A program made the translations under genes and the position numbers. The notes beneath the pieces are model-generated. The model saw only the letters and a program-made list of their open reading frames with translations, was not told where the DNA came from and made no database searches. From a candidate division FCPU426 bacterium (GTDB lineage: Bacteria; Oederibacteriota; Muellerivitia; Muellerivitales; DAHXKG01), in NCBI GenBank assembly GCA_027366525.1, contig DAHXKG010000003.1, positions 72,097 to 136,096 of the forward strand: a stretch of DNA of 64,000 nt, in the 5' to 3' direction. The stretch's first letter is position 1. Each line of letters opens with the position of its first letter. Positions 3,379 through 23,800 of this stretch are shown one piece after another.

Positions 3379-3990
3379 TTAAAGATCGGGTATTTTTTCT
3401 TCAAGGTGTTTTTGGATTTGCTGGTTATAGTCAGTATCAGAGATTTGGGTTAGATTGATTTTAATATTTTCTTCTGCGGCCAAGGCGGCGCAACGAGACA
3501 GTAATTTGGCGATGGTCCAATCGCTTTTTAAATAAGGAGAAACTAACGGTTTTAAGGTTTCGATGATGCCTTGCGGTTGGAGTAATTGAAGGGATAATTC
3601 ACGTACGCGAAGCGGGACAGTAATAGCATCTTTAAGCGCTTGATGGATCAAGGACATTTTTTTTTGCTGGTCGATTTCAGTAGAAGCTGGCTGTTGGCGT
3701 GCTAGGAGATAATGATTGAAAACTTGGGTGTCTCGTTCCGCTAGAGTCAAGGCCTCATGCAGCATTTCTGAAAGTGTGTGGGCGAGTTGAGTTAAAAGAG
3801 TGGGCTGAGCAGGAAGCTTGTTTTTTTTTAGCAGGAGTTGTGTAATCATGGAAAGTAGCGACACTGCTTGAGCTAAAGAGATGGCTGCAACAGCCCCTCC
3901 GCCAGGCGTGGGATTAGCGCTGGCAAGCTGTTGAAGATATTCTAATAAAGTAAGTTGAATAAGCGGTTTAGCGAGAGTCATGGGAGACAT
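3379..3990 (-). CDS. fchA: methenyltetrahydrofolate cyclohydrolase (formiminotransferase-cyclodeaminase domain family, FchA-like)
   Basis: PTPGGGAVAAISLAQAV motif typical of the cyclodeaminase/cyclohydrolase domain; likely start at internal Met (MSPMTLAK), which removes the overlap with the upstream gene. Confidence 0.65.
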   Translation of the reverse strand: MSPMTLAKPLIQLTLLEYLQQLASANPTPGGGAVAAISLAQAVSLLSMITQLLLKKNKLPAQPTLLTQLAHTLSEMLHEALTLAERDTQVFNHYLLARQQPASTEIDQQKKMSLIHQALKDAITVPLRVRELSLQLLQPQGIIETLKPLVSPYLKSDWTIAKLLSRCAALAAEENIKINLTQISDTDYNQQIQKHLEEKIPDL

Positions 3991-4957
3991 TCGACGATAA
4001 GTGATAATTTTCAAATAATCGAACCGCATTTCGTAAACACATCGCAATCGTCATAGGCCCAACGCGTGGGATATAAATGGTTGCTTTTTCTTTTGCAAGG
4101 TCCTCAAAATTTTGGTGGTCTGAAAAGTTAAGACAAACTGCTTCGGGACGAATTTCTGAGGCTTGAATTTTTTTAAAGGTATTGGGAACGCCAGTGATGA
4201 CGGCAGACGCACGTTGGAGGGCTTCTGCTCGAGAAATTGAGTAGGGTGATTTTTCAAAATGAGGTTGTGTGGAGTCGTAGAGGATTTGATTTTGAGGTCC
4301 AAGCACGAGGAGGCTATTGAGATCAAAAGAATAAACATAAGCTCCGTCATTGGAAAGCATAAATGCAAGTGGTTTTCCTACTACGGTTGAACGATTAAAA
4401 ATGGTGATGTGTTGTTCACTAAAAGGCAGGCCGAACTCGGATCGCAACGAGGTTCGCTCAAGTAGTTTCAAAATGGCAAGCGGGGTACAAGGTAAAATGC
4501 ATTTATGTTGCTGGAGCGCATCGTCGAATCGTTCATTCTTATAAAGTTTTTCCATCCAATATGTGGTTAATCCTTCAACGTCCTTATGGGGGTGGATGAG
4601 ATCTTTGACATGATGATCTTGTTCATTATTAAAAATCGGATAATAAACAAAAAGACCATGAACGGTCGGGTCCAGATTCGAAGCTTGAATCAAGTCTGAA
4701 ATTTTGTCTGGCGTGGTTTGAACGAGATCAAAATGAATTCCCACCGATTGGCAACTCGATTGAGTATATTCGGCATAGATACGGGAGGCTTTAGTTTGAG
4801 GGACCAAAAATCCTTTCAAATGAATAGTGTATTTTTTTTGCTGAATGAGCGTACGGATTTCATTGCGATGAAACGATGCGAGGATGTCCGGATCCCAAGT
4901 AGCCATAACAAATTCCTTAAATAAGGGCATAGTATTGGGAATTGGAATACTTGTCAA
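3968..4957 (-). CDS. folD: 5,10-methylene-tetrahydrofolate dehydrogenase (FolD/MTD1 family, possibly monofunctional)
   Basis: PCTPLAILKLL and RSTVVGKPLAFMLSNDGAYV motifs of FolD; insertion before PCTP reminiscent of monofunctional MTD1-type enzymes; separate cyclohydrolase gene immediately downstream. Confidence 0.7.
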   Translation of the reverse strand: MTSIPIPNTMPLFKEFVMATWDPDILASFHRNEIRTLIQQKKYTIHLKGFLVPQTKASRIYAEYTQSSCQSVGIHFDLVQTTPDKISDLIQASNLDPTVHGLFVYYPIFNNEQDHHVKDLIHPHKDVEGLTTYWMEKLYKNERFDDALQQHKCILPCTPLAILKLLERTSLRSEFGLPFSEQHITIFNRSTVVGKPLAFMLSNDGAYVYSFDLNSLLVLGPQNQILYDSTQPHFEKSPYSISRAEALQRASAVITGVPNTFKKIQASEIRPEAVCLNFSDHQNFEDLAKEKATIYIPRVGPMTIAMCLRNAVRLFENYHLSSNVSHDSR

Positions 4958-5030
4958 TCCTGGAACTTAAGAAGCGGTGCTGGGAGGGGTTGAATGTTTA
5001 AAGTGTGCCAAGAGGAGATCATTTTTCAAA

Positions 5031-5080
5031 AAGAATACGCATGTATTCTTTTTGAAAAATGTTTCACGTGGAACATTTTT
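5031..5080. repeat. composite palindromic element copy 1 (GAATAC-gcat-GTATTC palindrome plus AAAAATGTTtCACGTGGAACATTTTT palindrome)
   Basis: read directly; intergenic between rsmG 3' end and folD-like 5' end; about 84% identical to the reverse complement of 7856..7904. Confidence 0.6.
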
Positions 5081-5156
5081 ATCGAGAGATCCAGAAATCT
5101 GAAGGATGAAGGCCAAGGAAATTGCAGGAGCTCTTTCAAATGGATCCCGGTGCTTT

Positions 5157-5882
5157 TTATAAAGGTTGATTTGAAATTTTTGAATGGAGTCGTGGATAAG
5201 TGGATAAAGTTTTCCCCAGCTTTTCCACAATAACCAGCGAACGCGGTTGATGACTCGAAGATAAAGAATAATGGAGTTTTTCAACGATTTTAGATTGAAG
5301 AAGTTGGAGTGCCTTGTGGGATTTATCCACAAGATCTATCTGAGCCTGCGTGACCCAATTCACAAGATATCCACCGGATTTTAAAAGAGGAATGCCATAT
5401 TCTAAAACAACCGGGAATGGTTGTACCGCACGGGCAACAATGAGATCCCAATGTTCGCGATAGGAGGGCTGGTGACCGAGGTTTTCGGCACGTCCCCAAA
5501 GCGGATGGATATTTTGAAATCGTGGGGTTGCAAGGCAGGCTTGGAGAACTTGAATTTTTTTACGACGGGCGTCAAGCAAAGTCATGGAATGTTCATATCC
5601 CAGACTGATCGAAAGCGGTAGGCCGGGAAACCCATTGCCGGTTCCAAGATCAAGAATCGAGGAAAATTTAGAAGAATTCATCCGAATCCAAGGCAGAAGT
5701 TGAAGGGAATCAAGAATATGAAAATTAAAAATGTCTTCATCGGAAGTCCATTGCGTTAAATTGATAGTTTGGTTTTTTTTAAGTAAGCAGGATATAAACT
5801 CCGTTAGCACTGTTGCAAAGGAAGCATCCAGAAACGAGAAAGAAGTTTGCGAAAGTTTTTGTTGCAACCATTCGGAAGTCAA
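5157..5882 (-). CDS. rsmG: 16S rRNA (guanine527-N7)-methyltransferase RsmG (GidB)
   Basis: ILDLGTGNGFPGLPLSI SAM-binding motif; position directly downstream of mnmG. Confidence 0.85.
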   Translation of the reverse strand: MTSEWLQQKLSQTSFSFLDASFATVLTEFISCLLKKNQTINLTQWTSDEDIFNFHILDSLQLLPWIRMNSSKFSSILDLGTGNGFPGLPLSISLGYEHSMTLLDARRKKIQVLQACLATPRFQNIHPLWGRAENLGHQPSYREHWDLIVARAVQPFPVVLEYGIPLLKSGGYLVNWVTQAQIDLVDKSHKALQLLQSKIVEKLHYSLSSSHQPRSLVIVEKLGKTLSTYPRLHSKISNQPL

Positions 5883-5891
5883 CGCAATCCT

Positions 5892-7787
5892 TTAAGAAGC
5901 AGATTTAGAACTGGTGGAGGTTTGAGCAAATCGGCTGAGCGATAAAAGAAGTACTGATAAATCGGAGGGGGTAATCCCTGGAATGCGTGACGCCTGGCCA
6001 AAAGTTTGGGGTCGAATTTTTAAGAATTTTTCCTTAGCTTCTCTTGAAAGGCTTTCAAGGGAGGCATAAGGGAAATCTTCCGGAATAAGGGTTTGTTCAT
6101 GATGGTTTTGTTTTTGAATATCTTGATACATTTTTTTAAGGTATCCCTCGTATTTTAATTCGATTTCGATTTGAAGACCAATATCGGAATTCCACTGGAG
6201 ATCATGAGGAAGAAAAGGTCGTAAACGCTCATATGTTATTTCAGGTCTTCGAATAATCTCATCCAGTGTTCGATTGCGATCCAAGAGGGAGACGTTGAGG
6301 GTGCTGGAATCAATGGCTTCCATCGGGAGCAGATACGTTCGAAAGGCTTGAAGGCCGGACTTTAATTTATCTTTTTTGTCTAGGATTTGGTCTCGTTTTT
6401 CTTTGGAAATTAAACCCAATTGGTATCCCTTTTCCATTAATCGTAAATCAGCGTTATCGGGGCGTAATAAGAGACGATATTCTGCTTTGGAGGTAAACAG
6501 TCGATAGGGTTCTTCAGTTCCGCGTGTGACTAAATCATCAGTTAAGACTCCCATATAGGCTTCGCTACGAGATAAGATAAAAGGAGGGCATCCCTGAATT
6601 TTTTGGGCCGCATTGACGCCTGCTAAAAATCCTTGGGCGGCAGCTTCTTCATATCCTGAAGTTCCATTGATTTGGCCGGCTAGGAAAAGGTTTTGAATAC
6701 GATGGGTTTCGTATGCGTGTGAAATTTGAGTAGGGGGGATAAAATCGTATTCAACCGCATAACCGGGTCGAACAATTTCGGCATTTTCCAATCCAGGAAT
6801 AGTTTTAAGAAAAGCGTATTGAACTTCTAAAGGCAAAGAAGTGGAAAGACCATTTAAATAAAATTCATGGTTGGAAAGTCCTTCAGGCTCTAGAAATATT
6901 TGATGACGTATTCGCTGAGGAAATTTAACAATTTTATCTTCAATCGAAGGGCAGTATCGAGGCCCAATGCCTTGGATAGTTCCCGAAAAAAGAGGGGAAC
7001 GGGAGAGGTTATTCAAGATAATTTGTTGGGTTTGATCATTGGTATAGGTAATATAACAAGCGACTTGAGTTTGTTGTGGAAAGTGGGTTGTGAAATGAGA
7101 AAACGGGATAGGATTTTCGTCTCCCCACTGTATTTCGGTTTTTTCAAAATTTATTGATTCGCGCAGAACACGTGGATTGGTGCCTGTTTTCAGGCGGCCA
7201 ACTTGAAACCCAAGTACCTTCAGGTGCTGGGAAAGGTTCTTGGATGGCAATTCGCCCGTGCGTCCTCCTTCGATTTGAGTTTCCCCGATATGCATTAATC
7301 CATTTAAAAAGGTGCCGGTTGTTAAAATTACGGCTCGGGCATAAATTTCTTCGCCGTAGTGAGTCCGTACACCATAAACCTGTGATTCACGAATTAACAG
7401 GGACTCAACGGAAGCTTGTTTAATTTTCAAGCAAGGTTGAGACATCACGCATTGCTTCATGGTTTGATTATATAAATCTTTATCACATTGAGCCCGGAAC
7501 CCCCAAACTGCAGGGCCTTGAGTCCGATTAAGGATGCGCGATTGAATGGACGTGGCATCTGTCATTTTGGCCATTTCGCCTCCCAAGGCATCGATCTCTC
7601 GAACTAAATGGCCTTTGGCAAGCCCACCGATAGCTGGATTACAGCTCATTTTGGCAATGGTATCGGGATTCATTGTGAGGAGAATCGTTTCTAAGTTCAT
7701 ACGGGCACAAGCCAGTGCAGCTTCACATCCCGCGTGACCTCCGCCGACCACGATCACGGCATATGATGATTGAAATCCCACATCCAT
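5892..7787 (-). CDS. mnmG: tRNA uridine 5-carboxymethylaminomethyl modification enzyme MnmG (GidA)
   Basis: VIVVGGGHAGCEAALACARMG FAD motif; 631 aa; conserved gidA-gidB synteny. Confidence 0.95.
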   Translation of the reverse strand: MDVGFQSSYAVIVVGGGHAGCEAALACARMNLETILLTMNPDTIAKMSCNPAIGGLAKGHLVREIDALGGEMAKMTDATSIQSRILNRTQGPAVWGFRAQCDKDLYNQTMKQCVMSQPCLKIKQASVESLLIRESQVYGVRTHYGEEIYARAVILTTGTFLNGLMHIGETQIEGGRTGELPSKNLSQHLKVLGFQVGRLKTGTNPRVLRESINFEKTEIQWGDENPIPFSHFTTHFPQQTQVACYITYTNDQTQQIILNNLSRSPLFSGTIQGIGPRYCPSIEDKIVKFPQRIRHQIFLEPEGLSNHEFYLNGLSTSLPLEVQYAFLKTIPGLENAEIVRPGYAVEYDFIPPTQISHAYETHRIQNLFLAGQINGTSGYEEAAAQGFLAGVNAAQKIQGCPPFILSRSEAYMGVLTDDLVTRGTEEPYRLFTSKAEYRLLLRPDNADLRLMEKGYQLGLISKEKRDQILDKKDKLKSGLQAFRTYLLPMEAIDSSTLNVSLLDRNRTLDEIIRRPEITYERLRPFLPHDLQWNSDIGLQIEIELKYEGYLKKMYQDIQKQNHHEQTLIPEDFPYASLESLSREAKEKFLKIRPQTFGQASRIPGITPSDLSVLLLSLSRFAQTSTSSKSAS

Positions 7788-7855
7788 TCCTTTTTACAAA
7801 ACAGTGAAGTGTTTATAGCATACTTTAGAATCCAACTCAATATGGTTCTGAATTT

Positions 7856-7904
7856 GAAAATGTTCCACGTGGAACATTTTTTAAAAACATACAAATGTAT
7901 TCTT
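7856..7904. repeat. composite palindromic element copy 2 (perfect 24-bp palindrome AAAATGTTCCACGTGGAACATTTT plus CATAC-aaat-GTATTC), inverted relative to copy 1
   Basis: read directly; lies in the divergent intergenic region between mnmG and the coupling-protein-like gene. Confidence 0.6.
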
Positions 7905-7989
7905 TTGTGAATGTTGGATTTTTGTCCTGAAGACAATATTTAGGGCCTTTGTATTGGCGATGAAATGAAATTTAATTACAGTACTAGAT

Positions 7990-9768
7990 ATGAAAGCCGG
8001 ATTTATCAAATTTAAATTTCACGTTTTATTGATTCTAATCAGTGGAGGCATGCTGGGTTATTTAGGCATCGCGTGGCTTCGGCATCAATCCATGTCGCTT
8101 CCCGTTGTTTGGATGACTATTTTTTTAATATTGGGTGGGATTTTTTTCGGAATTCGCCATCAGCCGTTAGCGCCATGGATTCGATTGATTGCCAGCACGG
8201 CCCTAGCTGGAACAGTAACTCCACAAGTCTTCAATCCACACTCCCCCTTTTATGGAATGGTGTTCATCAGTATTCTCTGGGTTTTTTATCGAATGAGTCG
8301 TCCTCGCCCGATTAGAGTGAGTCCATCCCCGCTTTCATTGGGCAGATTTCCCTTGCAAATCGATCAAGAGGGTCAATGGTTTATTCCCGAAGAGTCGCTG
8401 AATTATCATGTGCAAGTGATCGGAGGAACCGGGAGTGGAAAAACTCGATTTGTGCTTAAACCCCTTATATATCAAGACATCGTAGATAATCGGATCGGAT
8501 GTTTCATTTATGATGTCAAGAGCAACTTAGCTCGAGAAGTGCACTATATGGCTTCGTATGCCCATCGAGAGAAAGAGCTGTTTTATTTGGATCTAGCTCA
8601 TCCGACTCTTTCCCAATCCTATAATCCACTGTTCGGGAGGGATCCCGATGTTATTGCCAATCGCATTCTAGCGGCATTGTATATGCAAGAACCTCAAACC
8701 CATCCGTATTATCGAGAGCTGACATACGCGTATCTATCCAATATCATTGCCTTGCTTTTAAGAGAATTTGAATGTATGACCTTTCAAGATTTGCTGGAAT
8801 TGACCCAAGAATTTGAAACCTTCAAAAAACTTCAAGATTTATGCAGTAAGTATTTTTTTACAGCGGAAAGTTCATTTTTTTATTCATGTTGGATTCATAA
8901 ACCAGTTCGCCAACGTCAACAAGAACTTTTTGGATTAATCAATAAATTGCAGGCCATTTGCAGCCGTTCATATGCATCGCTTTTCAATGTTCGTAAACCT
9001 CAGATTCAGTGGAAGACGCTTTTAAATCAACATCAAATTTTTTTGTTTGGTGCTTCGTCGCTTCAACATCCTGAAGATTCTAAAATGATATCAGCGTTAT
9101 TAATGATGGATTTAGCCAACTCGATTGAACCTCGATTTATCCGAAAACCGGATCAACCCTTTCGTCTTTATCTAGATGAATTTGATCAACTTCTCTATCC
9201 AGATTTTATTCATTTACTGAATAAAGCGCGCGAAGCGGAAATATCTATTATTCTGGCGCATCAAGCTTTGGGCGATTTAAAAACATCAATTCGAAATTTT
9301 TCAGAACAAATTGGTATTAATACCCGAAATAAAATTATCTTAGCGCTGGATGATCCAGAAACAGCATCCTTTTTTTCTCGGTTATTGGGATATCAACTTG
9401 AAAAACAAAGTGCCACAGAGTTTTATAATGCACATGATCAAAAAACGGGTTATCGGTTGAGTTCGGCGCTCCAATATAAGTACCCGCCGGATGAGATCAA
9501 AAATCTTCCAATTCAAAAAGGCATCATACGAATCATTTTAAAACAAGGACCGGTGGATTACTGCGTTCAACTCAATCATCCGGTAAACGTTCCTGAAACC
9601 TATCAACCTATTTTTCGGCGGGCGAGGCGTTCTCGGGTTTCTTCCAAGCGTCGGAAGACCTTGAAGTCCAATCATGCAGGTTTAGATCTAGATCGATTCA
9701 ATCAAAAAATAGATCCTGAACGAACGTCTCCTTCTTCCCATTTTCAGAAATCGAGGATTTCCATTTGA
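7990..9768 (+). CDS. type IV secretion coupling protein-like ATPase (TraD/TraG/VirD4 family-like)
   Basis: 2-3 N-terminal TM helices; Walker A VIGGTGSGKT; Walker B-like YLDEFDQL; ILAHQALGDL resembles the T4CP LTQS..QL motif; basic C-terminal tail. Confidence 0.55.
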   Translation: MKAGFIKFKFHVLLILISGGMLGYLGIAWLRHQSMSLPVVWMTIFLILGGIFFGIRHQPLAPWIRLIASTALAGTVTPQVFNPHSPFYGMVFISILWVFYRMSRPRPIRVSPSPLSLGRFPLQIDQEGQWFIPEESLNYHVQVIGGTGSGKTRFVLKPLIYQDIVDNRIGCFIYDVKSNLAREVHYMASYAHREKELFYLDLAHPTLSQSYNPLFGRDPDVIANRILAALYMQEPQTHPYYRELTYAYLSNIIALLLREFECMTFQDLLELTQEFETFKKLQDLCSKYFFTAESSFFYSCWIHKPVRQRQQELFGLINKLQAICSRSYASLFNVRKPQIQWKTLLNQHQIFLFGASSLQHPEDSKMISALLMMDLANSIEPRFIRKPDQPFRLYLDEFDQLLYPDFIHLLNKAREAEISIILAHQALGDLKTSIRNFSEQIGINTRNKIILALDDPETASFFSRLLGYQLEKQSATEFYNAHDQKTGYRLSSALQYKYPPDEIKNLPIQKGIIRIILKQGPVDYCVQLNHPVNVPETYQPIFRRARRSRVSSKRRKTLKSNHAGLDLDRFNQKIDPERTSPSSHFQKSRISI

Positions 9769-10586
9769 AGGAACACGCATTGTCGTGTTTAGAGATGGAG
9801 ATTCTTTCTTATATTGAAAGTAATAAGGGTATGGTGTTAGAGCTTTTAAAACAAAAATTTTTTGAATCGTCCTCGACCAAGTCCTTTCAGGCAGTAATAA
9901 AAAAACTTGAGATTCAAAAATATCTGAAAAAGTGTCAGCAATATCCGAAAGCGCCTGTTTTTGTTTTTTTAACGTTGAAAGCACGAACCCAACTGCAAAA
10001 GCAAGGCGGGGCTTATTTACCGGCTTCGCTGCGCCAACCGAAAATCAATATATTTGAAAGACAGCATGATTTTTGTGTTCAGCAAATTCGAATGAGCATT
10101 GAGAATTCAAAAAATGCGTGGAAGGATTTCGTGTGGCTTTCGGATTATGAAATGCGGTGTGGAATGAATTTATCTTGGAAGAAAAATAAAACGTTGTTGC
10201 GCCCATTTCAAAAATATACTCGAATTCCCGATGGCATTTTTGAAATACGGCTCAATGGGCACTTAGTGCATTTTGTGTTGGAATATGAACATGCTGCATA
10301 TTCGCATAGACAAATTCAAAGAATGGTTATGGGGCTTCAAAGGACTTTTCCGGATTTTTTATTTCTCATCGTGGCTCGAAATAAAATAAGGACTTTGCGT
10401 CTTGCTCGTATTATAGATCCATGGATTTCACACCAATCGTCAGAGCGTGATCGATGGATATTTTCTTTTTATGAAAAAGCAATTCAATTGCCTTTTGAAA
10501 AAATTCCGTGGGTTAATTTAAATACTGAATATGCTTTTTTTGTGGAAGATTCCATAAAGAATTTTGAATCCCTCAACCCTAAGTAA
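9765..10586 (+). CDS. replication-relaxation (Replic_Relax) family protein-like
   Basis: N-terminal wHTH-like segment; HDFCVQQIRMSIE and PDGIFEIR...HFVLEYEHAAYS blocks matching the Replic_Relax pattern (PDa.f.l....f.vE.D); ATGA overlap with the preceding ATPase gene. Confidence 0.45.
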   Translation: MKEHALSCLEMEILSYIESNKGMVLELLKQKFFESSSTKSFQAVIKKLEIQKYLKKCQQYPKAPVFVFLTLKARTQLQKQGGAYLPASLRQPKINIFERQHDFCVQQIRMSIENSKNAWKDFVWLSDYEMRCGMNLSWKKNKTLLRPFQKYTRIPDGIFEIRLNGHLVHFVLEYEHAAYSHRQIQRMVMGLQRTFPDFLFLIVARNKIRTLRLARIIDPWISHQSSERDRWIFSFYEKAIQLPFEKIPWVNLNTEYAFFVEDSIKNFESLNPK

Positions 10587-12356: not shown

Positions 12357-14117
12357 TTAGGATACCAGAGATTCAAGCCGATCTAATTCTAAACTAATTT
12401 CATTCATTAAATCAGCTAGTAGAGGTTCTTCAAAATTAAAGCGAATACCCGCTTTTTGAAAAATTTCAGGTAACGGAAGGCTTCCACCTACGGCAAGTCC
12501 TTCCAAAAAAGAATGTAAACCATCTTCAAAATGCTGACGAGTATTTTTCCAAACTTGGAGAGCCCCGAGTTGTGCAATTCCATATTCAATATAATAAAAG
12601 GGAACTTCAAAAATATGCAATTGTCGGTGCCAGTGACTTTCTAGTGCGTCTTCCAATCCATCCCAATTTTCAAGACCACTAAATTTTTTCCAAAGAATCA
12701 ACCATTGCTTCGAACGGTCTTGAGCCGTTTGATCAGGATGTAGATAAATCCAATGCTGAAAAGCATCAACCAGTGCAATCCAAGGAAATAAAAGAACGAT
12801 ATGCTCGAAATGATCGATTTGAGATCGAATGGCATCCGAAGGATTCGGATAGCAATAGTGTAAGAATTGATTGCCGAGTAATTCCATGCTCATTGAAGCA
12901 ACTTCGCAGAATTCCATGGGAGCATGTTGATAGGGTGAAAAGGAGATTGTGCGGGAGGCAAATGCGTGCATGGCGTGGCCACTTTCATGAAGTAGCGTAC
13001 GAAGATCCTGATCTAGGCCCACGGCGTTCATGAAGATAAAAGGAAGTCGGGATTCAGAAAACATAGTATTATATCCACCGGGTGCTTTTCCCTTTCGGCT
13101 TTGCAAATCTAGCAATCCCAGTTGAATCATCGTTTGAAATTGATGACTTAATGTGGGAGAAAGGGCTTGTAGAATTTGATCACATTGCTTGATGAGTTGT
13201 TCGATTTGATCAAATGGATGTAAAGGAGGGCGCCCCAGCGGATCAACGCCGAGATCCCACGGCCGCAACGTATCCAGCTTCATTTTTTTCATCCGGCGAA
13301 GTTGTATTTTTTTTACAAGTGGTAGAACCGTTTTTTCAATACTGGAATGAAAGCGTTCACAATCCTCCGGAGAATAATCAAAACGTTCTTTGAGTTTAAA
13401 AGAGTAATCGCGGAAATTTTGAAATCCTGCGTTTTGTGAAATCGTGGTACGTAATTTCAACATCTGATCAAATAAGTGATTGAGTGTATGTTTTTCTTTT
13501 AAACGACGTTGGGTGATTAGATGCCAGACTTCATCTCGAATCAGTCGATTAGGCGATTCTAAATAGCGAGACATTTCTTGTAACGTTTGCTCCTTTTGAT
13601 CATAGGTAATGGTTAGAGATCCGGTAATTTTTTGATACTGCTGTGAGAGTTGTTCAAGTTGGGTTTCCAGAGGGATATTACTTTCGCGATAGAGGCTCAA
13701 CTGATTTTCAACAGTGCGATTAAAGAGGTCATATTGATTGGTGTTGAGTAAGCGACGAGCCGGGCTATTCCAATATTTTTGCAATAAAATAAAATTATAT
13801 TTTTTTTCCAAAGGAGCTATTTCTTGAATAAATTCAAGAAATAATTTTTCAATTTCTGGATTATCAGTTTGACAGGTCATTTGAACATATCGAATTTCAG
13901 CTTCCTCTTGTAAGACATCGGTTAATTCATTAAAATCATCTAACCAAGTTTTAAGTTCATCGGGTCCTTGAAGGACGCGTTGATCTAAGTCGCGATAAAA
14001 AGGCTCAACGGAATTCCAATTTTGAACTTGAAATTGTGGAGGCAAGTATTTTCTTTTAAAAATATGTGGCAAATTTCTCAAATTATGTGTTGTACTCATA
14101 AGGGGGTACGGTATCAA
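12357..14117 (-). CDS. pepF: oligoendopeptidase F (M3B family zinc metallopeptidase)
   Basis: HESGHAMH HEXXH zinc motif; 586 aa, typical PepF length. Confidence 0.85.
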   Translation of the reverse strand: MIPYPLMSTTHNLRNLPHIFKRKYLPPQFQVQNWNSVEPFYRDLDQRVLQGPDELKTWLDDFNELTDVLQEEAEIRYVQMTCQTDNPEIEKLFLEFIQEIAPLEKKYNFILLQKYWNSPARRLLNTNQYDLFNRTVENQLSLYRESNIPLETQLEQLSQQYQKITGSLTITYDQKEQTLQEMSRYLESPNRLIRDEVWHLITQRRLKEKHTLNHLFDQMLKLRTTISQNAGFQNFRDYSFKLKERFDYSPEDCERFHSSIEKTVLPLVKKIQLRRMKKMKLDTLRPWDLGVDPLGRPPLHPFDQIEQLIKQCDQILQALSPTLSHQFQTMIQLGLLDLQSRKGKAPGGYNTMFSESRLPFIFMNAVGLDQDLRTLLHESGHAMHAFASRTISFSPYQHAPMEFCEVASMSMELLGNQFLHYCYPNPSDAIRSQIDHFEHIVLLFPWIALVDAFQHWIYLHPDQTAQDRSKQWLILWKKFSGLENWDGLEDALESHWHRQLHIFEVPFYYIEYGIAQLGALQVWKNTRQHFEDGLHSFLEGLAVGGSLPLPEIFQKAGIRFNFEEPLLADLMNEISLELDRLESLVS

Positions 14118-14125
14118 AAATTAGC

Positions 14126-14656
14126 GTGAATTTAAAGAGGCTTTTAATGTTGAAAAAAAATAATTTTTTAAATATCGCCATCGGGTTTTTATTCTTAACG
14201 CTTATGGCTGGATGTCAACTTCCCAATCGAGGTTTAGATAAAATTGAATTGGCCCGAGAATTAAAATTAGGCGCTAGTGCTGGTGAAATTTTGTATCATT
14301 GGTATATGTTTTCTAAACGACCTTTACAATCGGATTCCGTTCTGAGTAATAAAAGTGTCGTGGCCTATCGAGGGATAAGTTATCATGTCAGTGTTTCTGG
14401 ATTTTATATCTTTTTTAATATGGCCACCCGAACACTAGTCAAAGTGGAATTTATGTACAGGCCTAGTATGGCCAAAGAAAAGGAGAAAAGCTTGTTAAAA
14501 CAGTGGACCAAAGCCTTATGGAAACCTGAAGTTATTCGTCAATGGGGAGGGCAAATTTATTTGTGGCAAGATAAATATGCCCAGATTAAATTATATGTTT
14601 CCAATGGTATTTGCTACTTCGAGCAATTACTGACCCAAAATCCAGTTCAAAGATAA
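14126..14656 (+). CDS. lipoprotein of unknown function
   Basis: signal peptide with LMAGCQ lipobox. Confidence 0.4.
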   Translation: MNLKRLLMLKKNNFLNIAIGFLFLTLMAGCQLPNRGLDKIELARELKLGASAGEILYHWYMFSKRPLQSDSVLSNKSVVAYRGISYHVSVSGFYIFFNMATRTLVKVEFMYRPSMAKEKEKSLLKQWTKALWKPEVIRQWGGQIYLWQDKYAQIKLYVSNGICYFEQLLTQNPVQR

Positions 14657-17364: not shown

Positions 17365-19296
17365 TTAAAATTTGTGGGCAATTCTTGGTGGATTTGTCGC
17401 TAAGGATTTTTTCAGTAACCCGTCTAAAATAGGTTTTAATGGATCGTGTGAATCCATTTTCGGGAAGTTGGATGTCCAGTAACGATTATTAATTTTTACC
17501 AAAGCTTCCAGAGCACTTTTCCGAACTAGAGTCGAGTAACAATAATGAAAAATCCGCTTTTTCAAAATAATATTGGTGAGAAATGGGATCGCATTAAGAT
17601 ATAGAAGATCGCCTAGCATTTGACAAGTAGAAATCAAAATCAATTCGGAAGATCGATTGAAGTGTTCTCGATATGCGATTACTTTAAATATCAGTGGCAG
17701 TAGATGTTCACGACCAGCGTATCCTAGTGCTTGAATGGCTTTAATGACCATTTCTTCTGAATCGTCTAATAGGAGAAGTTTCAAAAGTAATTCACTTGAA
17801 AAATCATTGGAAGCCTCAATCGTTTGAATTAAATTTAACTTAAGTTGGGTTGAACCTTGAGCAACCCATGGGAACAATTGAAAAGAAAGTTTTAAATCAA
17901 TCCCGAAAATTCCGAAAACGGGGAATAACTTTAAAAGTTCTTCCTCGGTTTTGACATCCGCGACCATATCTAAGAGAACTGAAGAGATCCGATTTCGAAT
18001 TTCCGGAATAAAATTTAAATAAGAAATTATAGTCTCACTGAGGCAATCATCGATTGGTAAAAATGGATTAATGGATGTTACATTGGAGTAAGGAGGAAAA
18101 ATAGCTTTTCTTGTTTGTTGAATGAAAAAAATTATTTTTTGAATCAGGATAGGATTCAATTTTTTTAGGAGCCATACTCGAATCATTTGACGTCGTTCTA
18201 AAGTAGCCGGTTGATCATTTTCTATGTGAGAATGAAATGTGAAAAACAAATGAAAAATAAGTTTACTCATGGAAAATTGAATGGCCATGTCGAGCAGATC
18301 CCAAATTAGGAGCAATTCAGTTTGATATAGGGAATCATCAGTTTCTTTGGATAATTGAATAATTAAATTTTTTAATATCAAGTGAACCCATCTGGGATTT
18401 TTAATCCATGGACGGGAATCTTGAAGATGATTTAAAGCCAATAGTCGGTCAGTTGGGGTTGACTGGAGATTTTTGATGAGCTGAAATAAACAAGAGCGTA
18501 TCAAAAAATATTTTTGCTGTTGTTCCCAATGAAGAATACACTCATTGATTAGGCCTACAGTTGCAGGTTCTTTTAGAACATTCATCCAGTGATTTTGAAT
18601 GCAACTCTCAACCAACTGGATCATAGGTTCCATTTGATTTTCTTGCAATAAATCTCCTGTTGGAGTGTTAAACCAATCATTGATATATTGGAATGAATCA
18701 CCAATTTTAGATACTTGATTCAAAAAATAAGAAAAAAGTTGTTGCATGGCTAATTTTAATTGAAGATGCTTTAAGGATATAGAGGACTCTCTCTGGAGCG
18801 CCACCAGTTGATTCCAGCCTAAAGCAATTGCTTTAAGAACAGTGGCTTGAGTGGAATTTTCTGTAACGGGGGGAATAACAGTTATGGCTTGTAAGGGAAG
18901 AGTAAAGCTTTTTTTTGAACTTATTGCAGATGGATTCAGATAGAAATCGTCATTCAATTTTTGGTGAGATAAAAAATTAGTTGACGGATTAATCTCAGTG
19001 CCGATCATGATTTTTATCCAGGAAGATGGCAATAAAAACATTTTTTTAACGCAATTAATAAAATCATCCAAGGCAAGGTTATTACAAGAAATAGCATTTA
19101 AAAATGAAATCCAATCAGCGGTCTTACGTGACATATCGATCATTGGATTAAAAAAAATCGAATCAGCTAAAAAAATTTTTTTAAATGAAAAAACTGGATT
19201 GCATATTTCCCAATTGGATTTAGCAATGATAAAAAAATTCGGATATTTGGATAACGATGGAACAAATCCCAAGGATAATACTTGAAAGGGTTTCAT
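17365..19296 (-). CDS. large HEAT/ARM-like repeat protein, unknown function
   Basis: C-terminal repeats EEMVIKAIQALGYAG / RKSALEALVKI; 643 aa; no catalytic motif. Confidence 0.35.
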   Translation of the reverse strand: MKPFQVLSLGFVPSLSKYPNFFIIAKSNWEICNPVFSFKKIFLADSIFFNPMIDMSRKTADWISFLNAISCNNLALDDFINCVKKMFLLPSSWIKIMIGTEINPSTNFLSHQKLNDDFYLNPSAISSKKSFTLPLQAITVIPPVTENSTQATVLKAIALGWNQLVALQRESSISLKHLQLKLAMQQLFSYFLNQVSKIGDSFQYINDWFNTPTGDLLQENQMEPMIQLVESCIQNHWMNVLKEPATVGLINECILHWEQQQKYFLIRSCLFQLIKNLQSTPTDRLLALNHLQDSRPWIKNPRWVHLILKNLIIQLSKETDDSLYQTELLLIWDLLDMAIQFSMSKLIFHLFFTFHSHIENDQPATLERRQMIRVWLLKKLNPILIQKIIFFIQQTRKAIFPPYSNVTSINPFLPIDDCLSETIISYLNFIPEIRNRISSVLLDMVADVKTEEELLKLFPVFGIFGIDLKLSFQLFPWVAQGSTQLKLNLIQTIEASNDFSSELLLKLLLLDDSEEMVIKAIQALGYAGREHLLPLIFKVIAYREHFNRSSELILISTCQMLGDLLYLNAIPFLTNIILKKRIFHYCYSTLVRKSALEALVKINNRYWTSNFPKMDSHDPLKPILDGLLKKSLATNPPRIAHKF

Positions 19297-19439
19297 AATT
19301 CACCTCGTACGTTGATTAGTAATGAAACCGTATTTCAAGCGGATAATTTTCAAACTTAGAATATCATCAAGAGGGCCTCAATGTTGAGAAAAAGAAACAG
19401 GCAAAGAGGAATTCGTTTTACTTGTAAGATGTTCAAAAA

Positions 19440-20285
19440 TCAACTGGCAGGAACGATTAAATCAAAAGATTGAATTTTTTCAATACATTCTTGTATCAAA
19501 TAGTCAGGGGTTGATGCGCCAGCAGTAATACCTACCTTTTTTTGATTATGGAACCATTGGGGTTGAAGCTCAGAGGCGGTCTCCACATGAAAAGTTTTTA
19601 AGGGAAGATAGGTTTGACATGTTTGCGCTAACTTGTGAGTATTAGAAGAATTGCGACCGCCAATAACAATCATAAGATCAACTTGCTGTGCAAGAAGAGC
19701 AGCTGAAGTTTGTCGATCCTTCGTGGGTTTACAAATAGTGTTAATAGCGACGACTTGATCACAATAACCTTGAAGAATATGAACAAATTTGTCAAATTTT
19801 TCTAAAAGAAGTGTACTTTGACAGATGACGCCAATTTTAGCATGGGGTTTAAGTCCAATCAAATCAGATTCTTCATAAACAATGATTGGATTTTTCATCC
19901 GGCTAGCAATCCCTTTAACCTCAACATGATTCGGATCGCCAATAATGACAATTTGAAATCCTTGAGACTCTAATTTCCAGCCTTCTTTATAAATTCGGGT
20001 CACGAGAGGACAAGTTGTATCAATGATATCAAAATTTTTTGATTTCATTTCTTCAATTTTTTTAATGTCGAGTCCATGCGCTGTAATGACGACTTGATTG
20101 CCATCAATTTCTTCTAAATCGTGAACAATGTGTTTTTTCATTTTAGACAAACGTTCAACTTCTTGGGGATTATGAATGAGAGATCCAAAAATAAAAGCTT
20201 GATCCATACTTTCTGCTTTTTGAATCGCTTTTTTAACCCCAAAACAAAAACCAGCAGCTTCCGCAACTAAAATTTCTCGAGGCAT
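19440..20285 (-). CDS. ispH: 4-hydroxy-3-methylbut-2-enyl diphosphate reductase
   Basis: GFCFGVKKAI, TCPLVTRI and HNPQEV motifs of IspH/LytB; 281 aa. Confidence 0.9.
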   Translation of the reverse strand: MPREILVAEAAGFCFGVKKAIQKAESMDQAFIFGSLIHNPQEVERLSKMKKHIVHDLEEIDGNQVVITAHGLDIKKIEEMKSKNFDIIDTTCPLVTRIYKEGWKLESQGFQIVIIGDPNHVEVKGIASRMKNPIIVYEESDLIGLKPHAKIGVICQSTLLLEKFDKFVHILQGYCDQVVAINTICKPTKDRQTSAALLAQQVDLMIVIGGRNSSNTHKLAQTCQTYLPLKTFHVETASELQPQWFHNQKKVGITAGASTPDYLIQECIEKIQSFDLIVPAS

Positions 20286-20891
20286 AACTTAATCCTGAAT
20301 ACAAGACATTGAGACAAATATGCCTTGAATGACTGAAAATGTCAACTAGCTGCTTTTGAATGTACAAAAAAATTATGTGAGAGCGGTTTTTTACAGATTT
20401 TTATTCAGGTAGTATTTTACAAAAATAATAGACCCATTGAATCAGTCTCATATGCGACCGATGTTGGCATAATTTTATGAAAAGTGAAATTACCAGAAAT
20501 TTCTAGGTTATCTACTTTCTACAATTGTTCGTTCTTCGGAAGATCGGTATAATATTCACTTCCTTGAGCAGATTAGCCGCCGATTTTGATTCTTAAGTAT
20601 CCTAAAGCTGATCGATATAAGAGCCCGAGTAGTGTATTTCAACATTAGGAAAAAAAAAATTTGCTTTAATTATAAATTAAGTAACAAATATATTAAAGAA
20701 GAATCAAATTTGATTTGAAATTTTTTAAAATCCAAATGATACAGGTTGCTTCTGGAAATTAAACTAATTGCATTGATGGTATCTACGTATAACAAAAAAA
20801 GTTACTATGAAGAGTATCGCTTATAAATTTAGATAAAGATTTAAAATTGGGAAGACATGGCTAAATCCACTTTGGATTGAGGCAATAAGGA

Positions 20892-23800
20892 ATGATAAAA
20901 AAAATACTTTATACGGGATCATTTGAGGTACTAGAAAAAGGATTGGCTCAGGAACTAAAGACGTTTCAATCCAAAAAAGAACTTTCAGAACTCAAGATAA
21001 TCGTTCCTAATTTTCAATTAACACATTATTTAAAATTGGAAATGTCTAAACGTCTTGGATTTTTGTTTAATATCGAATTTAAAACCTTACATGATTTTTT
21101 AAAAACAACTATTCAGGAGAAGCAGATTCAAGAAGATTGGAAAATAATTCCAGATGAAATAATTCCTCATGTTTTGAAAAATCTTTTGCAATTACCCATG
21201 GATGTTCCAAGTTATTTTCAATCCGTTCGAGAGACTTCTGGCTTTTATCGATTATTGGCGAATACGATTATGGATATCCATCAAGGATTATTTGATTCAC
21301 AAACGATTCGTAAAGCGGTTCAGCGCTATTCTAATAATAAAAGTTATCGTCAACGGACTAAAAAATGGGAAGAAATAGCAAAGTATGTTGAGATCTATGG
21401 TAATTGGAAGAAAGATAAAAAAATTTTAGATAGTTCAGACTTATATTATCAGAGTTTGAATTTGGTTTTGAAAAGCCCCATTTGGATTTATGGATTTTAT
21501 GATGCAACAGCTTTGCAAAAAAAAATATTAAAGCATGTAACATCATTTTATCCATCAATATGGTTTGTTCCCTATGAAGATAAAAAGGCGTATGGGTATG
21601 CTGAGCCCTTTTTAAAATGGATTCAATCTTTGAGTTCAAAGCCAACCCACATGGATTTTGAAAATGCAGTGAGTGAGAACATGTATCAGTTACGAGAAGT
21701 ATTATTTGAAGATAAACCAAATCAACCGATGTTGGATATTAAAAATAGTTGTAAAGTAATTTTATCGTCGAATGTGGAACAAGAAATCAGCGATGCCGTC
21801 AAATATTCGATCAAATATCTTGAAAAAGACAAAGATAAACAAGCACCCCGATCCATCGCTTTTTTATTAAGGTACAGCGATCCATATCTAAAAGTATTTA
21901 AACCCGTACTAGAGTCGCTACAAGTGCCTTATGGATTTCATTTGCCACAACCATTAAATGAATGCGCGGAGAGCCGAATTATTAGCTTGCTACTAACCTG
22001 TTTAGAAGATGGATGGATGCCGGAATGGGTTATATCAATCTTAAGTTCGCCGAAAATTCAATGGAAATTCTTTAAGATTCACCAAAGCAAATGGAATAGG
22101 ACCAATTGGATTTTTGAAATTCGAAAAGCCTATAAGCAATTTGGAGATCATTGGATGAGCAAGATTTATTCGAAAGAATCTCGAACGTCGAACTCCAATA
22201 TAAACTTAGATTTAATGAACGTAATTCATGTACTCCAAAAAATGAAAGTGGAATTTCAAAATCAAAAAACCATATTCCAAAAAATGGAATATTTGGTGAA
22301 AAAAATTTCACAATTATTTTTAGAAACCGATATTCAAAAAAAAATACTGGGAAAATTAAAAAATTTTGAGGAGTTCATGAATCCGCTGGATCTTTTAAAT
22401 CAAGAAAAGCTAAGTGTTATTGTTCAATCATTAATGAACTCCAAAATATATGCCATGAATCAAGACATCAATGGAATTCAAATTGTTGATATTATGGAAA
22501 CGCGAGGCGTATCATTTGACATAGTAATCCTTCCAGGCTTGATTGAAAAATGGGTGCCTCAGTTTTTGCCACAAGATCCAATATTATTAGATGACGAACG
22601 ATCCATTTGGAATCAAATGAGTGAAGGAGAACAATATCTTCCATTAAAATCCGATCTACTATTAGAAGAGCGGCTTTTATTCTATTTATCTGTTTGTAGT
22701 GCTAAAAAACTTTTAATTGTTTCAGCTCCCATATGGGATTTGTATGATGGCAATCCACAAATAATTTCTAGCTACCTTTTTCAACTTTTGAATCTTTTAT
22801 ATCCTCAAATTGATTTCAAAATTCATCACCTGATTCAACAAACTGAAAATGTCTTTTCAATTTTCCCTGAAAAATTAGAAAATTGCGTATCAGAAATGGA
22901 TTTTTTATTATTTTATGGAAAAAGAAGCCTTCAAAAAAATTCTAACGATTTCTTTTCAATAGCTCAATCAATTCCATTTTTTATAGAAGGATTGCAATTA
23001 ATTCAACATCGAAATTTACCTACATTTACTTCGTTTGATGGAATGATTCAACCCCATCAAACATTAAATGATGTCAACTTACATAATTGGACAGCCTCAA
23101 AATTTGAAACTTATTTACAGTGCCCTATGCAGTATTTTTATCAATATATATTAAATTTGGATGTTGAGTCAAACGATCAAGATGCACTGCGCGTGGGAGC
23201 GGATCAAAAAGGACAATGGATACACCGATTTTTGGAAAAGTGCGTCCGATTTGGTTTGGAGCATCATTGGTTTGATGGGAACTTAAAACAAGTGGAGTCG
23301 CAAGAAGTGGAATCCATATATGATCAAATCAGCCAAGAATTTTCAGAATCGAATTCGCGGAGTGAAAATATTTTTTGGAAAAATGAATCCCTTCAATTGA
23401 AATTTCGGATGGTTCAAATATTAAAACGAATATTGGAAGATCAACAATGGGTGCCTTGGAAAGTTGAAGTCCCTTTTGATGAACAGGGTCAATTTGTGAA
23501 TTTTCCATTACATAATGGGAAAACCATTCGACTAAGAGGAAAAATCGATCGTATTGATATTTCGAGAGACCAGAAGAATCTACGAGTGGTCGATTATAAA
23601 TCAGGGCAGCTTTCAAATTACCCAGAAAAAGATATTCAAGAGGGCAAAAAAATTCAATTACATGTCTATGCTTGGATTTGTAAACATAATTATCCAGATA
23701 AAGATGTCGAATCCGCTCGGTATGAGTTTATTGATCAAGATAAAAAAAAATATTCTAGAAATGGACCCTCGCTTAAACCTTTTAAACAATTTGAGGAAAA

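Follow-up and report, generated by a model that had tools for sequence, protein, structure and literature searches.

Probable chromosomal parS sites at both ends of mnmG-rsmG in a clade of uncultured bacteria

The locus and the question it raises

Why should the mnmG-rsmG gene pair be bracketed by two inverted copies of a palindromic element of about 50 bp? An earlier note on this DNA had offered an operator for a dimeric regulator, common to a C1-folate operon and to one for tRNA/rRNA modification, or else a dispersed repeat or the relic of a rearrangement beside conjugative-element genes. We analyzed the whole 64-kb stretch of DNA (hereafter the window), in which the following genes surround the two copies:

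3968..4906, minus strand: folD (Pfam THF_DHG_CYH), start taken at the ATG at 4906
5157..5882, minus strand: rsmG (gidB; Pfam GidB, E = 2.2e-31)
5892..7787, minus strand: mnmG (gidA; Pfam GIDA, E = 3.8e-167), first gene of the bracketed pair
7990..9768, plus strand: orphan gene for a type IV coupling-protein-like (TraD/VirD4/TrwB) ATPase (Pfam TraG-D_C, TrwB_AAD_bind)

This MnmG shares only about 56% identity with its closest named match, from Thermodesulfovibrio/Nitrospirae. RsmG carries a C-terminal extension of about 35 aa, which is clade-specific and conserved in relatives. The folD start at 4906 is called in three of four independent assemblies (L121 included), and a promoter scan found a single promoter-like match for this gene, TTGACA-17-TACTAT at 4957-4929. 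On the other side, the coupling-protein-like gene is divergent from mnmG and stands where most relatives have mnmE. Its NCBIfam scores do not exceed 90 bits, against cut-offs of 250-900, and Pfam and NCBIfam searches revealed no second conjugation gene in the 64-kb window; the "adjacent conjugative-element genes" previously invoked thus come down to one orphan, far below the family cut-offs. The remainder of the window is housekeeping in nature (AddAB, the glycine cleavage system, squalene/phytoene synthases, a TRAP transporter, and others).

The description of the two copies themselves was accurate. They lie at 5031-5080 (copy 1) and, inverted, at 7856-7904 (copy 2), 125 nt from the folD ATG at 4906 and 70 nt from the mnmG ATG at 7787, respectively. 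Their inverted alignment comprises 51 columns with 7 differences (i.e., about 86% identity, close to the 84% first estimated), and searches with both the core and the composite returned these two copies alone in the 64 kb, as had been judged by eye. The same arrangement is present in four independent assemblies (ENA, JGI, and two from Logan), so it is not an assembly artefact.

The palindromic cores match the chromosomal parS consensus

At the center of each copy is a CACGTG-centered dyad:

5060..5075, no strand: probable parS site 1, TGTTTCACGTGGAACA, 82 nt downstream of the rsmG stop
7861..7876, no strand: probable parS site 2, TGTTCCACGTGGAACA, 74 nt upstream of the mnmG start, in the intergenic region between mnmG and the divergent coupling-protein-like gene

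Both cores match TGTTNCACGTGNAACA, the universal chromosomal parS consensus, with 0 mismatches. This consensus occurs twice in the 64 kb, at the two sites in question, where 0.17 occurrences are expected, and tolerating up to 2 mismatches still yields n = 2. Around site 2, the palindrome extends to a perfect 24 bp (7857-7880), as previously reported, and the same extended palindrome surrounds site 1 with one mismatch (5055-5080). A search with AATGTTCCACGTGGAACATT, allowing up to 3 mismatches, also found two places only in the 64 kb, while shuffled sequences predict 0.00. The two sites are separated by 2.8 kb.

The published parS consensus is TGTTNCACGTGAAACA, and a variant, TGTTCCACGTGGAACG, has been described in Myxococcus (PMC7022226, Table 1 for the latter). 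The sites of Bacillus subtilis and most bacteria, bound by ParB (Spo0J), are the same 16-bp palindrome as here, with identical conserved positions and a low copy number, and they are likewise clustered in a rnpA, yidC, jag, mnmE, mnmG, rsmG, recF, gyrBA neighborhood. They differ from the present case in two respects: the half-site variants found here are GGAACA/GAAACA, and in this clade parA-parB are not adjacent to rsmG, ParB not being seen in the sequence examined. The Myxococcus xanthus site has the TGTTCCACGTGGAAC core in common with copy 2 and with the relatives, but this species possesses 22 clustered sites near parAB, whereas here two sites bracket mnmG-rsmG. In the Alphaproteobacteria, Xanthobacter autotrophicus presents a single consensus site between mnmE and mnmG, as is also the case in this genome's relatives; its operon then continues with rsmG-parA-parB, while here rsmG is followed by a second parS and then by recF or folD. 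Another 16-bp palindrome, the Noc-binding site (NBS) of Firmicutes, is the target of a CTP-dependent ParB-family paralogue; it differs from parS in sequence, is dispersed, and is excluded from the terminus. The sites described here presumably belong with parS, which they match, and not with NBS.

The motif is also found in the expected company elsewhere. Matches to the 18-mer ATGTTYCACGTGRAACAT occur in more than 120 chunks of genomes spread over almost all bacterial phyla, often several per chunk. Among 120 such chunks of 8 kb in which co-occurrence was counted, 46 encode ParB, 47 ParA, 43 MnmG, and 36 RsmG, and at least one of the four is present in 72. Two of the loci (L030 and that of X. 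autotrophicus, L064) show, by Pfam, the order mnmE-mnmG-rsmG-parA-parB with sites in between. Moreover, a metagenome scan with CACGTGRAACATTTTTYAAAAA retrieved 67 contigs belonging to other lineages, nearly all with the full parS core. A general extended parS flank was considered and rejected, since the only trend across 300 half-flanks is a mild preference for T next to the site.

On these sequence grounds, the two dyads are very probably chromosomal parS, i.e., centromere-like loading sites of the ParABS segregation system. The idea of a target for a dimeric DNA-binding protein thus survives from the earlier note; that of an operator common to C1-folate and tRNA/rRNA-modification genes does not, the dyad being canonical parS. 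A parS pair beside mnmG/rsmG is an ordinary, already known kind of element, and not a new gene switch.

Related lineages keep the sites at the ends of mnmG-rsmG

We compared the 22-kb loci of six related uncultured lineages, whose MnmG proteins are 65-72% identical and whose GC content ranges from 46 to 63%. All six share the same layout, with a parS in front of mnmG and another behind rsmG, and each of the seven lineages (this genome included) has exactly two sites per about 22 kb. In the six relatives, the downstream site lies 41-144 nt past rsmG; the upstream one stands 88-167 nt before the called mnmG start in five of them and overlaps the start in the sixth, L132. What is conserved is the core itself: across the seven lineages (GC 39-63%), pairwise identity amounts to 94% in the 16-mer and falls to 27-28%, the chance level, in the adjacent 30 nt.

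The genes beyond the sites are another matter. In most relatives, the synteny is of the origin-region type, rnpA-yidC-jag-mnmE-mnmG-rsmG-recF-DciA-gyrB-gyrA; recF-(DciA-like)-gyrB-gyrA lies downstream in all six and rnpA-yidC-jag-mnmE upstream in most. Hence the downstream parS precedes recF, not folD, in 6/6, while the upstream neighbor varies. In the present genome, both outer junctions of the cassette are rearranged relative to the relatives, with cobT-cobS on the other side of it than in most of them. The parS-mnmG-rsmG-parS unit thus persists across this uncultured clade, with different genes outside it. In the comparison of orthologous gidA regions that had been proposed, the site near mnmG is kept in the six relatives and the downstream one goes with the 3' end of rsmG; the suggested link with folD is not supported. 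The dyads are tied to the ends of mnmG-rsmG, not to promoters.

An AT-rich hairpin outside site 1 and its decayed twin

The rest of the composite resemblance comes from a second, AT-rich palindrome on the outer side of each site:

5020..5061, minus strand: perfect hairpin with a 19-bp stem and a 4-nt loop, directly outside parS 1
7877..7906, no strand: degenerate copy of the hairpin flank, 24/30 identical to 5023-5052, on the outer side of parS 2

The flank palindrome noticed in copy 1 is thus real, but it is larger than first seen, and constitutes the longest perfect hairpin in the window. It lies 96 nt past the rsmG stop, contains A5 and U5 tracts within its stem, and folds on the minus strand with -21.9 kcal/mol (z = -5.9). 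The terminator scan made no call at 5020-5061 because the AT-rich stem has fewer than three G-C pairs. Its probable role, in our view, is to terminate or insulate the transcript of mnmG-rsmG, upstream of the folD promoter. A known structured RNA was discarded, the Rfam matches at 5000-5079 being all below threshold and to plant microRNA hairpins.

In the twin, whose palindrome lies at 7885-7904, two mismatches break the stem and the fold is weak (z about -2.3). Among 128,000 positions, no other 30-mer reaches even 22/30, so the similarity between the two flanks reflects homology rather than chance. This agrees with the suggestion, made previously, of a rearrangement relic, here a local one. 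A palindrome such as parS is homologous to its copies in both orientations, and could in this way have seeded an inverted duplication or gene conversion; the twin outside parS 2 would be the by-product of a single local event of this type. Its location is a divergent promoter region, in which there is no transcript to terminate.

The hairpin is private to this genome and was not found in the six relatives. A conserved parS-side hairpin in these lineages was also rejected: strong hairpins beside their parS sites are sporadic, lie on differing sides, and look like terminators of the neighboring genes. Likewise, the GAATAC..GTATTC hairpin occurs in 0/67 of the metagenome contigs with parS and a similar T5-Y-A5 flank, a collection that excludes the source sample.

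Could the composite nevertheless be a functional two-part unit? The outer palindrome could serve as a boundary, with a lineage-specific protein-bound dyad or a cruciform outside both parS confining the ParB-CTP clamps to the 2.8-kb mnmG-rsmG region; alternatively, the two composites could be the inverted repeats along which this genome's parS-mnmG-rsmG-parS cassette was inverted or relocated. The second palindrome does lie outside both sites and is the sole other sequence that they share, tightly bound proteins can block ParB spreading in one direction (PMC7333895), and the rearranged outer junctions, together with the displaced cobT-cobS, would suit an invertible or relocatable cassette. However, the palindrome of copy 2 is degenerate, with its two stem mismatches, all the relatives retain the parS pair while lacking the palindrome, and the four assemblies show one orientation of the cassette only. 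We regard such a unit as very unlikely. If it were true, the boundary would shield the promoters of folD and of the coupling-protein-like gene.

Operator and dispersed-repeat readings

Even less likely is an operator for a dedicated dimeric transcription factor co-regulating the folD-fchA and mnmG-rsmG operons. Both copies do lie upstream of minus-strand gene starts, at the 70 and 125 nt given above, and ParB on parS has been reported to alter nearby gene expression in some species (PMC7333895). Against this, the sequence is that of universal parS, co-occurring with parAB, mnmG, and rsmG across phyla, and recF takes the place of folD after the downstream site in the six relatives, so that there is no shared folD/mnmG operator. 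The position relative to the folD promoter, which the earlier note had asked to be checked, points the same way: site 1 stands about 100 nt upstream of the promoter-like match and its -35-like hexamer, with the -21.9 kcal/mol hairpin in between. From the comparison of relatives, the operator reading appears already largely refuted.

Least likely of all is a mobile or dispersed repeat (REP/MITE-like) of about 51 nt with a CACGTG palindrome by chance, which the two inverted copies at 86% identity, each built of palindromes, may evoke, but which is contradicted by a count of two in 64 kb, by relatives that keep the core at orthologous positions without its flank, and by the second palindrome being absent from the 67 contigs; neither a target-site duplication nor a transposase was seen at the composite.

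Partition proteins and the replication origin

With parS as the preferred reading, what would act on these sites? Searches by tblastn, Pfam, and NCBIfam detected no ParA or ParB homologue, either across the 64-kb window or across the relatives' 22-kb loci, so the cognate protein is assumed, not seen. Following established knowledge of the family (PMC7333895), a ParB dimer would recognize each 16-bp palindrome by its helix-turn-helix domains, then bind CTP, close as a clamp, and slide onto the adjacent DNA. Being 2.8 kb apart, the two sites would, we propose, seed one ParB-DNA partition complex over mnmG-rsmG. Such a complex would be moved by ParA and would load the SMC condensin near the origin region (PMC7333895).

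GC skew does not change sign in the window, and oriC was not located there. A candidate at 5191-5331, with four DnaA-box-like 9-mers within 140 bp at positions conserved in the relatives, was rejected because the 9-mers coincide with conserved residues (VDK, VEK, and YPR) in the clade-specific C-terminal extension of RsmG and there is no skew change.

What the probable parS pair means for this lineage

In conclusion, this clade keeps parS-mnmG-rsmG-parS as a block while its neighbors are reshuffled and parAB presumably lie elsewhere. A practical lesson is to compare any striking palindrome near gidA/gidB with the parS consensus before proposing a new regulon. The hairpin and its decayed twin offer a natural case in which a palindromic centromere has apparently seeded an inverted copy of its own flank. 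Finally, the parS pair shows where the origin-proximal region probably lies in an uncultured and poorly classified lineage.

The Two Composite Elements Bracketing mnmG-rsmG

The sequences that the earlier note had described as two inverted double-palindrome copies are indeed present at 5031-5080 (copy 1) and 7856-7904 (copy 2), together with the perfect 24-bp palindrome claimed for copy 2, which lies at 7857-7880 and has its counterpart, with one mismatch, at 5055-5080. The 20-mer AATGTTCCACGTGGAACATT is found, with up to three mismatches, at two sites only in the 64 kb, where shuffled sequences would be expected to give none, so that no further copy exists there and a REP or MITE repeat is disfavoured. 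An alignment of the two, read outward from the dyad, spans 51 columns, 7 of which differ. Their AT-rich second palindromes share 24 of 30 positions, and no 30-mer elsewhere, among ~128,000 positions, reaches 22 of 30; the flank similarity is therefore due to homology and not to chance. Both copies are identically arranged in four independent assemblies, which means that the arrangement is not an assembly artefact.

Features of the region (window coordinates)
5060-5075, parS 1: TGTTTCACGTGGAACA, zero mismatches to TGTTNCACGTGNAACA
7861-7876, parS 2: TGTTCCACGTGGAACA, zero mismatches to TGTTNCACGTGNAACA
5020-5061, hairpin in copy 1: perfect 19-bp stem and 4-nt loop
7990-9768, plus strand: orphan TraD/VirD4/TrwB-like coupling protein, membrane-anchored, adjoining parS
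9765-10586, plus strand: 273-aa ORF with no family match, following the coupling-protein-like gene

Identity of the Dyad

When one genome was scanned for each species, ATGTTYCACGTGRAACAT was matched in at least 120 chunks. The matches listed come from Proteobacteria, Firmicutes, Actinobacteria, Bacteroidota, Spirochaetota, Planctomycetota, Acidobacteriota, Chloroflexota, Patescibacteria, and others, with 2-4 sites per chunk in 25 of 120, and a spread of this kind across phyla is what marks parS, the centromere bound by ParB. The chromosomal parS consensus is TGTTNCACGTGAAACA, and the Myxococcus site is listed as TGTTCCACGTGGAACG (PMC7022226). In the window, parS 1 and parS 2 are the only sites within two mismatches of TGTTNCACGTGNAACA, for 0.17 expected. 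As an independent test, we counted par and gid genes in 120 motif-bearing chunks of 8 kb among the matches listed: ParB was found in 46, ParA in 47, MnmG in 43, RsmG in 36, and at least one of the four in 72, an association that holds across phyla. The order mnmE-mnmG-rsmG-parA-parB with interspersed parS sites was confirmed by Pfam at two loci, L030 from Paenibacillaceae and L064 from Xanthobacter. Moreover, in metagenome contigs of unrelated lineages (L147, L169, L171, L179, and L194), a consensus parS flanked by TTTTTCAAAAA precedes by ~10-15 nt an ORF starting with ...YDV(I/V)VVGAG, the MnmG N-terminus; parS directly upstream of mnmG is thus recurrent across phyla. The extended flank shows at most a mild T preference in other phyla. 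We conclude that the dyads are very probably canonical chromosomal parS sites in their canonical neighbourhood, i.e., an element already well known. A dimeric DNA-binding protein, as proposed earlier, is indeed likely to be the ligand.

The Conserved Unit in Relatives

The window derives from a bacterium that is uncultured. The closest MnmG from named taxa (Thermodesulfovibrio/Nitrospirae) is ~56% identical, and those of metagenomic relatives are 65-73% identical. We compared the mnmG loci (~22 kb) of six metagenomic relative lineages, and every one contains exactly two parS sites (0-2 mismatches), the first located 88-167 nt 5' of the called mnmG start (overlapping it in L132) and the second 41-144 nt 3' of rsmG. 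Over the seven lineages, whose GC content ranges from 39% to 63%, the parS 16-mer displays 94% pairwise identity and the 30 nt adjoining it on every side 27-28%, the chance level; the site is evidently under purifying selection. The pair is missing from two more distant loci (MnmG 56-57% identical). Most relatives present the classic origin-region synteny rnpA-yidD-yidC-jag-mnmE-mnmG-rsmG-recF-DciA-gyrB-gyrA. The upstream neighbour of the pair can be mnmE, a PIN/MazE pair, a DJ-1 protein or, in the window, the coupling-protein-like gene, while downstream recF in the relatives is replaced by folD in the window. Since the outer genes vary while the pair persists, the conserved unit is parS-mnmG-rsmG-parS, and the comparison of gidA regions places parS at the ends of mnmG-rsmG, to which it is anchored, and not at folD. 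The idea of an operator shared by folD and mnmG finds no support, because parS is associated with folD in this genome alone and, at folD, does not occupy an operator position.

In the relatives (L125, L127, L129, L130, L131, and L132; ~12,600-14,500), a low-GC intergenic region of 300-450 bp (GC 32-40%; 49% in L132) separates rsmG from recF, which comes next and is itself followed by a DciA-like gene, gyrB, and gyrA. This intergenic region contains the second parS site together with a TATAAT-like element that is conserved; dnaA-dnaN is absent between rsmG and gyrA in the six loci.

The 3' end of rsmG contains four DnaA-box-like 9-mers (TTATCCACA, at most one mismatch) clustered within 140 bp (5191-5331), the full 64 kb having 23, and their positions are kept in five of six relatives. 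They overlap the conserved RsmG residues VDK, VEK, and YPR, which belong to a clade-specific C-terminal extension of ~35 aa. We dropped them as evidence for an origin because of this coincidence and of a GC skew that does not change sign. Protein constraint may explain them, and a dual role, e.g., DnaA titration beside parS, is possible.

The Second Palindrome

The hairpin at 5020-5061, larger than previously described, is the longest perfect one of the window (-21.9 kcal/mol, z = -5.9). The second palindrome was found in none of the six relatives and in none of the 67 metagenome contigs having parS with a T5-Y-A5 flank, and is therefore private to this genome. On the minus strand, the rsmG stop is followed by an 82-nt spacer, parS 1, the hairpin, a ~60-nt spacer, a TTGACA-17-TACTAT promoter-like match, and the folD ATG (4906). 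Given this position between the rsmG stop and the folD promoter-like match, we read the hairpin as a putative element that terminates or insulates the mnmG-rsmG transcript. The terminator scan made no call at 5020-5061, where the stem is AT-rich, and Rfam returned nothing meaningful for a structured RNA. Beside parS 2, the second palindrome has two stem mismatches, folds weakly, and is located in a divergent promoter region, where there is nothing to terminate.

Both second palindromes stand on the outer side of their respective parS. The simplest account of this doubled flank would be a single inverted duplication or gene conversion followed by decay. Palindromic parS sites, offering homology in either orientation, would have primed one local event that copied the hairpin flank, and the useless copy at parS 2 would then have decayed. 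This outer-side geometry is also the sole argument for a functional reading, in which the palindromes form a boundary for ParB sliding; they could otherwise be inverted repeats of a relocated cassette, for which the placement of cobT-cobS on the opposite cassette side from most relatives may be relevant. The cassette has a single orientation in all four assemblies. We consider either version very improbable. The cobT-cobS genes lie 3' of rsmG in this genome (L121, its own locus, 18045-21896), but most relatives carry them on the other strand and 5' of rnpA (about 180-3100 in L125-L131), a difference that would fit an inversion or relocation with a breakpoint just outside the parS pair.

The adjacent conjugative element once suspected is reduced to one orphan TraD/VirD4-like gene, scoring at most 90 bits against NCBIfam cut-offs of 250-900, and further transfer genes are absent from the 64 kb. 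This gene and the 273-aa ORF take the slot by parS held by mnmE in most relatives. Within 10001-44000, GC is 32-36% across ~14-44 kb vs 39-42% elsewhere; this low-GC part carries housekeeping genes (AddAB-like, LytB, squalene/phytoene synthases, NAD synthase, two-component systems), and the region is not an obvious mobile element.

Implications for Partition

ParB dimers nucleate at parS via their helix-turn-helix domains; ParB then binds CTP, closes as a clamp, and slides to flanking DNA, which gives rise to a partition complex that ParA moves and that brings SMC condensin to DNA near the origin (PMC7333895). ParA and ParB homologues are encoded neither in the 64-kb window nor in the relatives' loci, and parAB must be located elsewhere in the genome in this clade. 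This non-adjacency, the conserved parS pair around mnmG-rsmG, and the private inverted hairpin flank are minor, lineage-specific details. A cognate ParB would bind the predicted sites and the downstream steps would presumably follow, parS 1 and parS 2, 2.8 kb apart, seeding one ParB complex over mnmG-rsmG.
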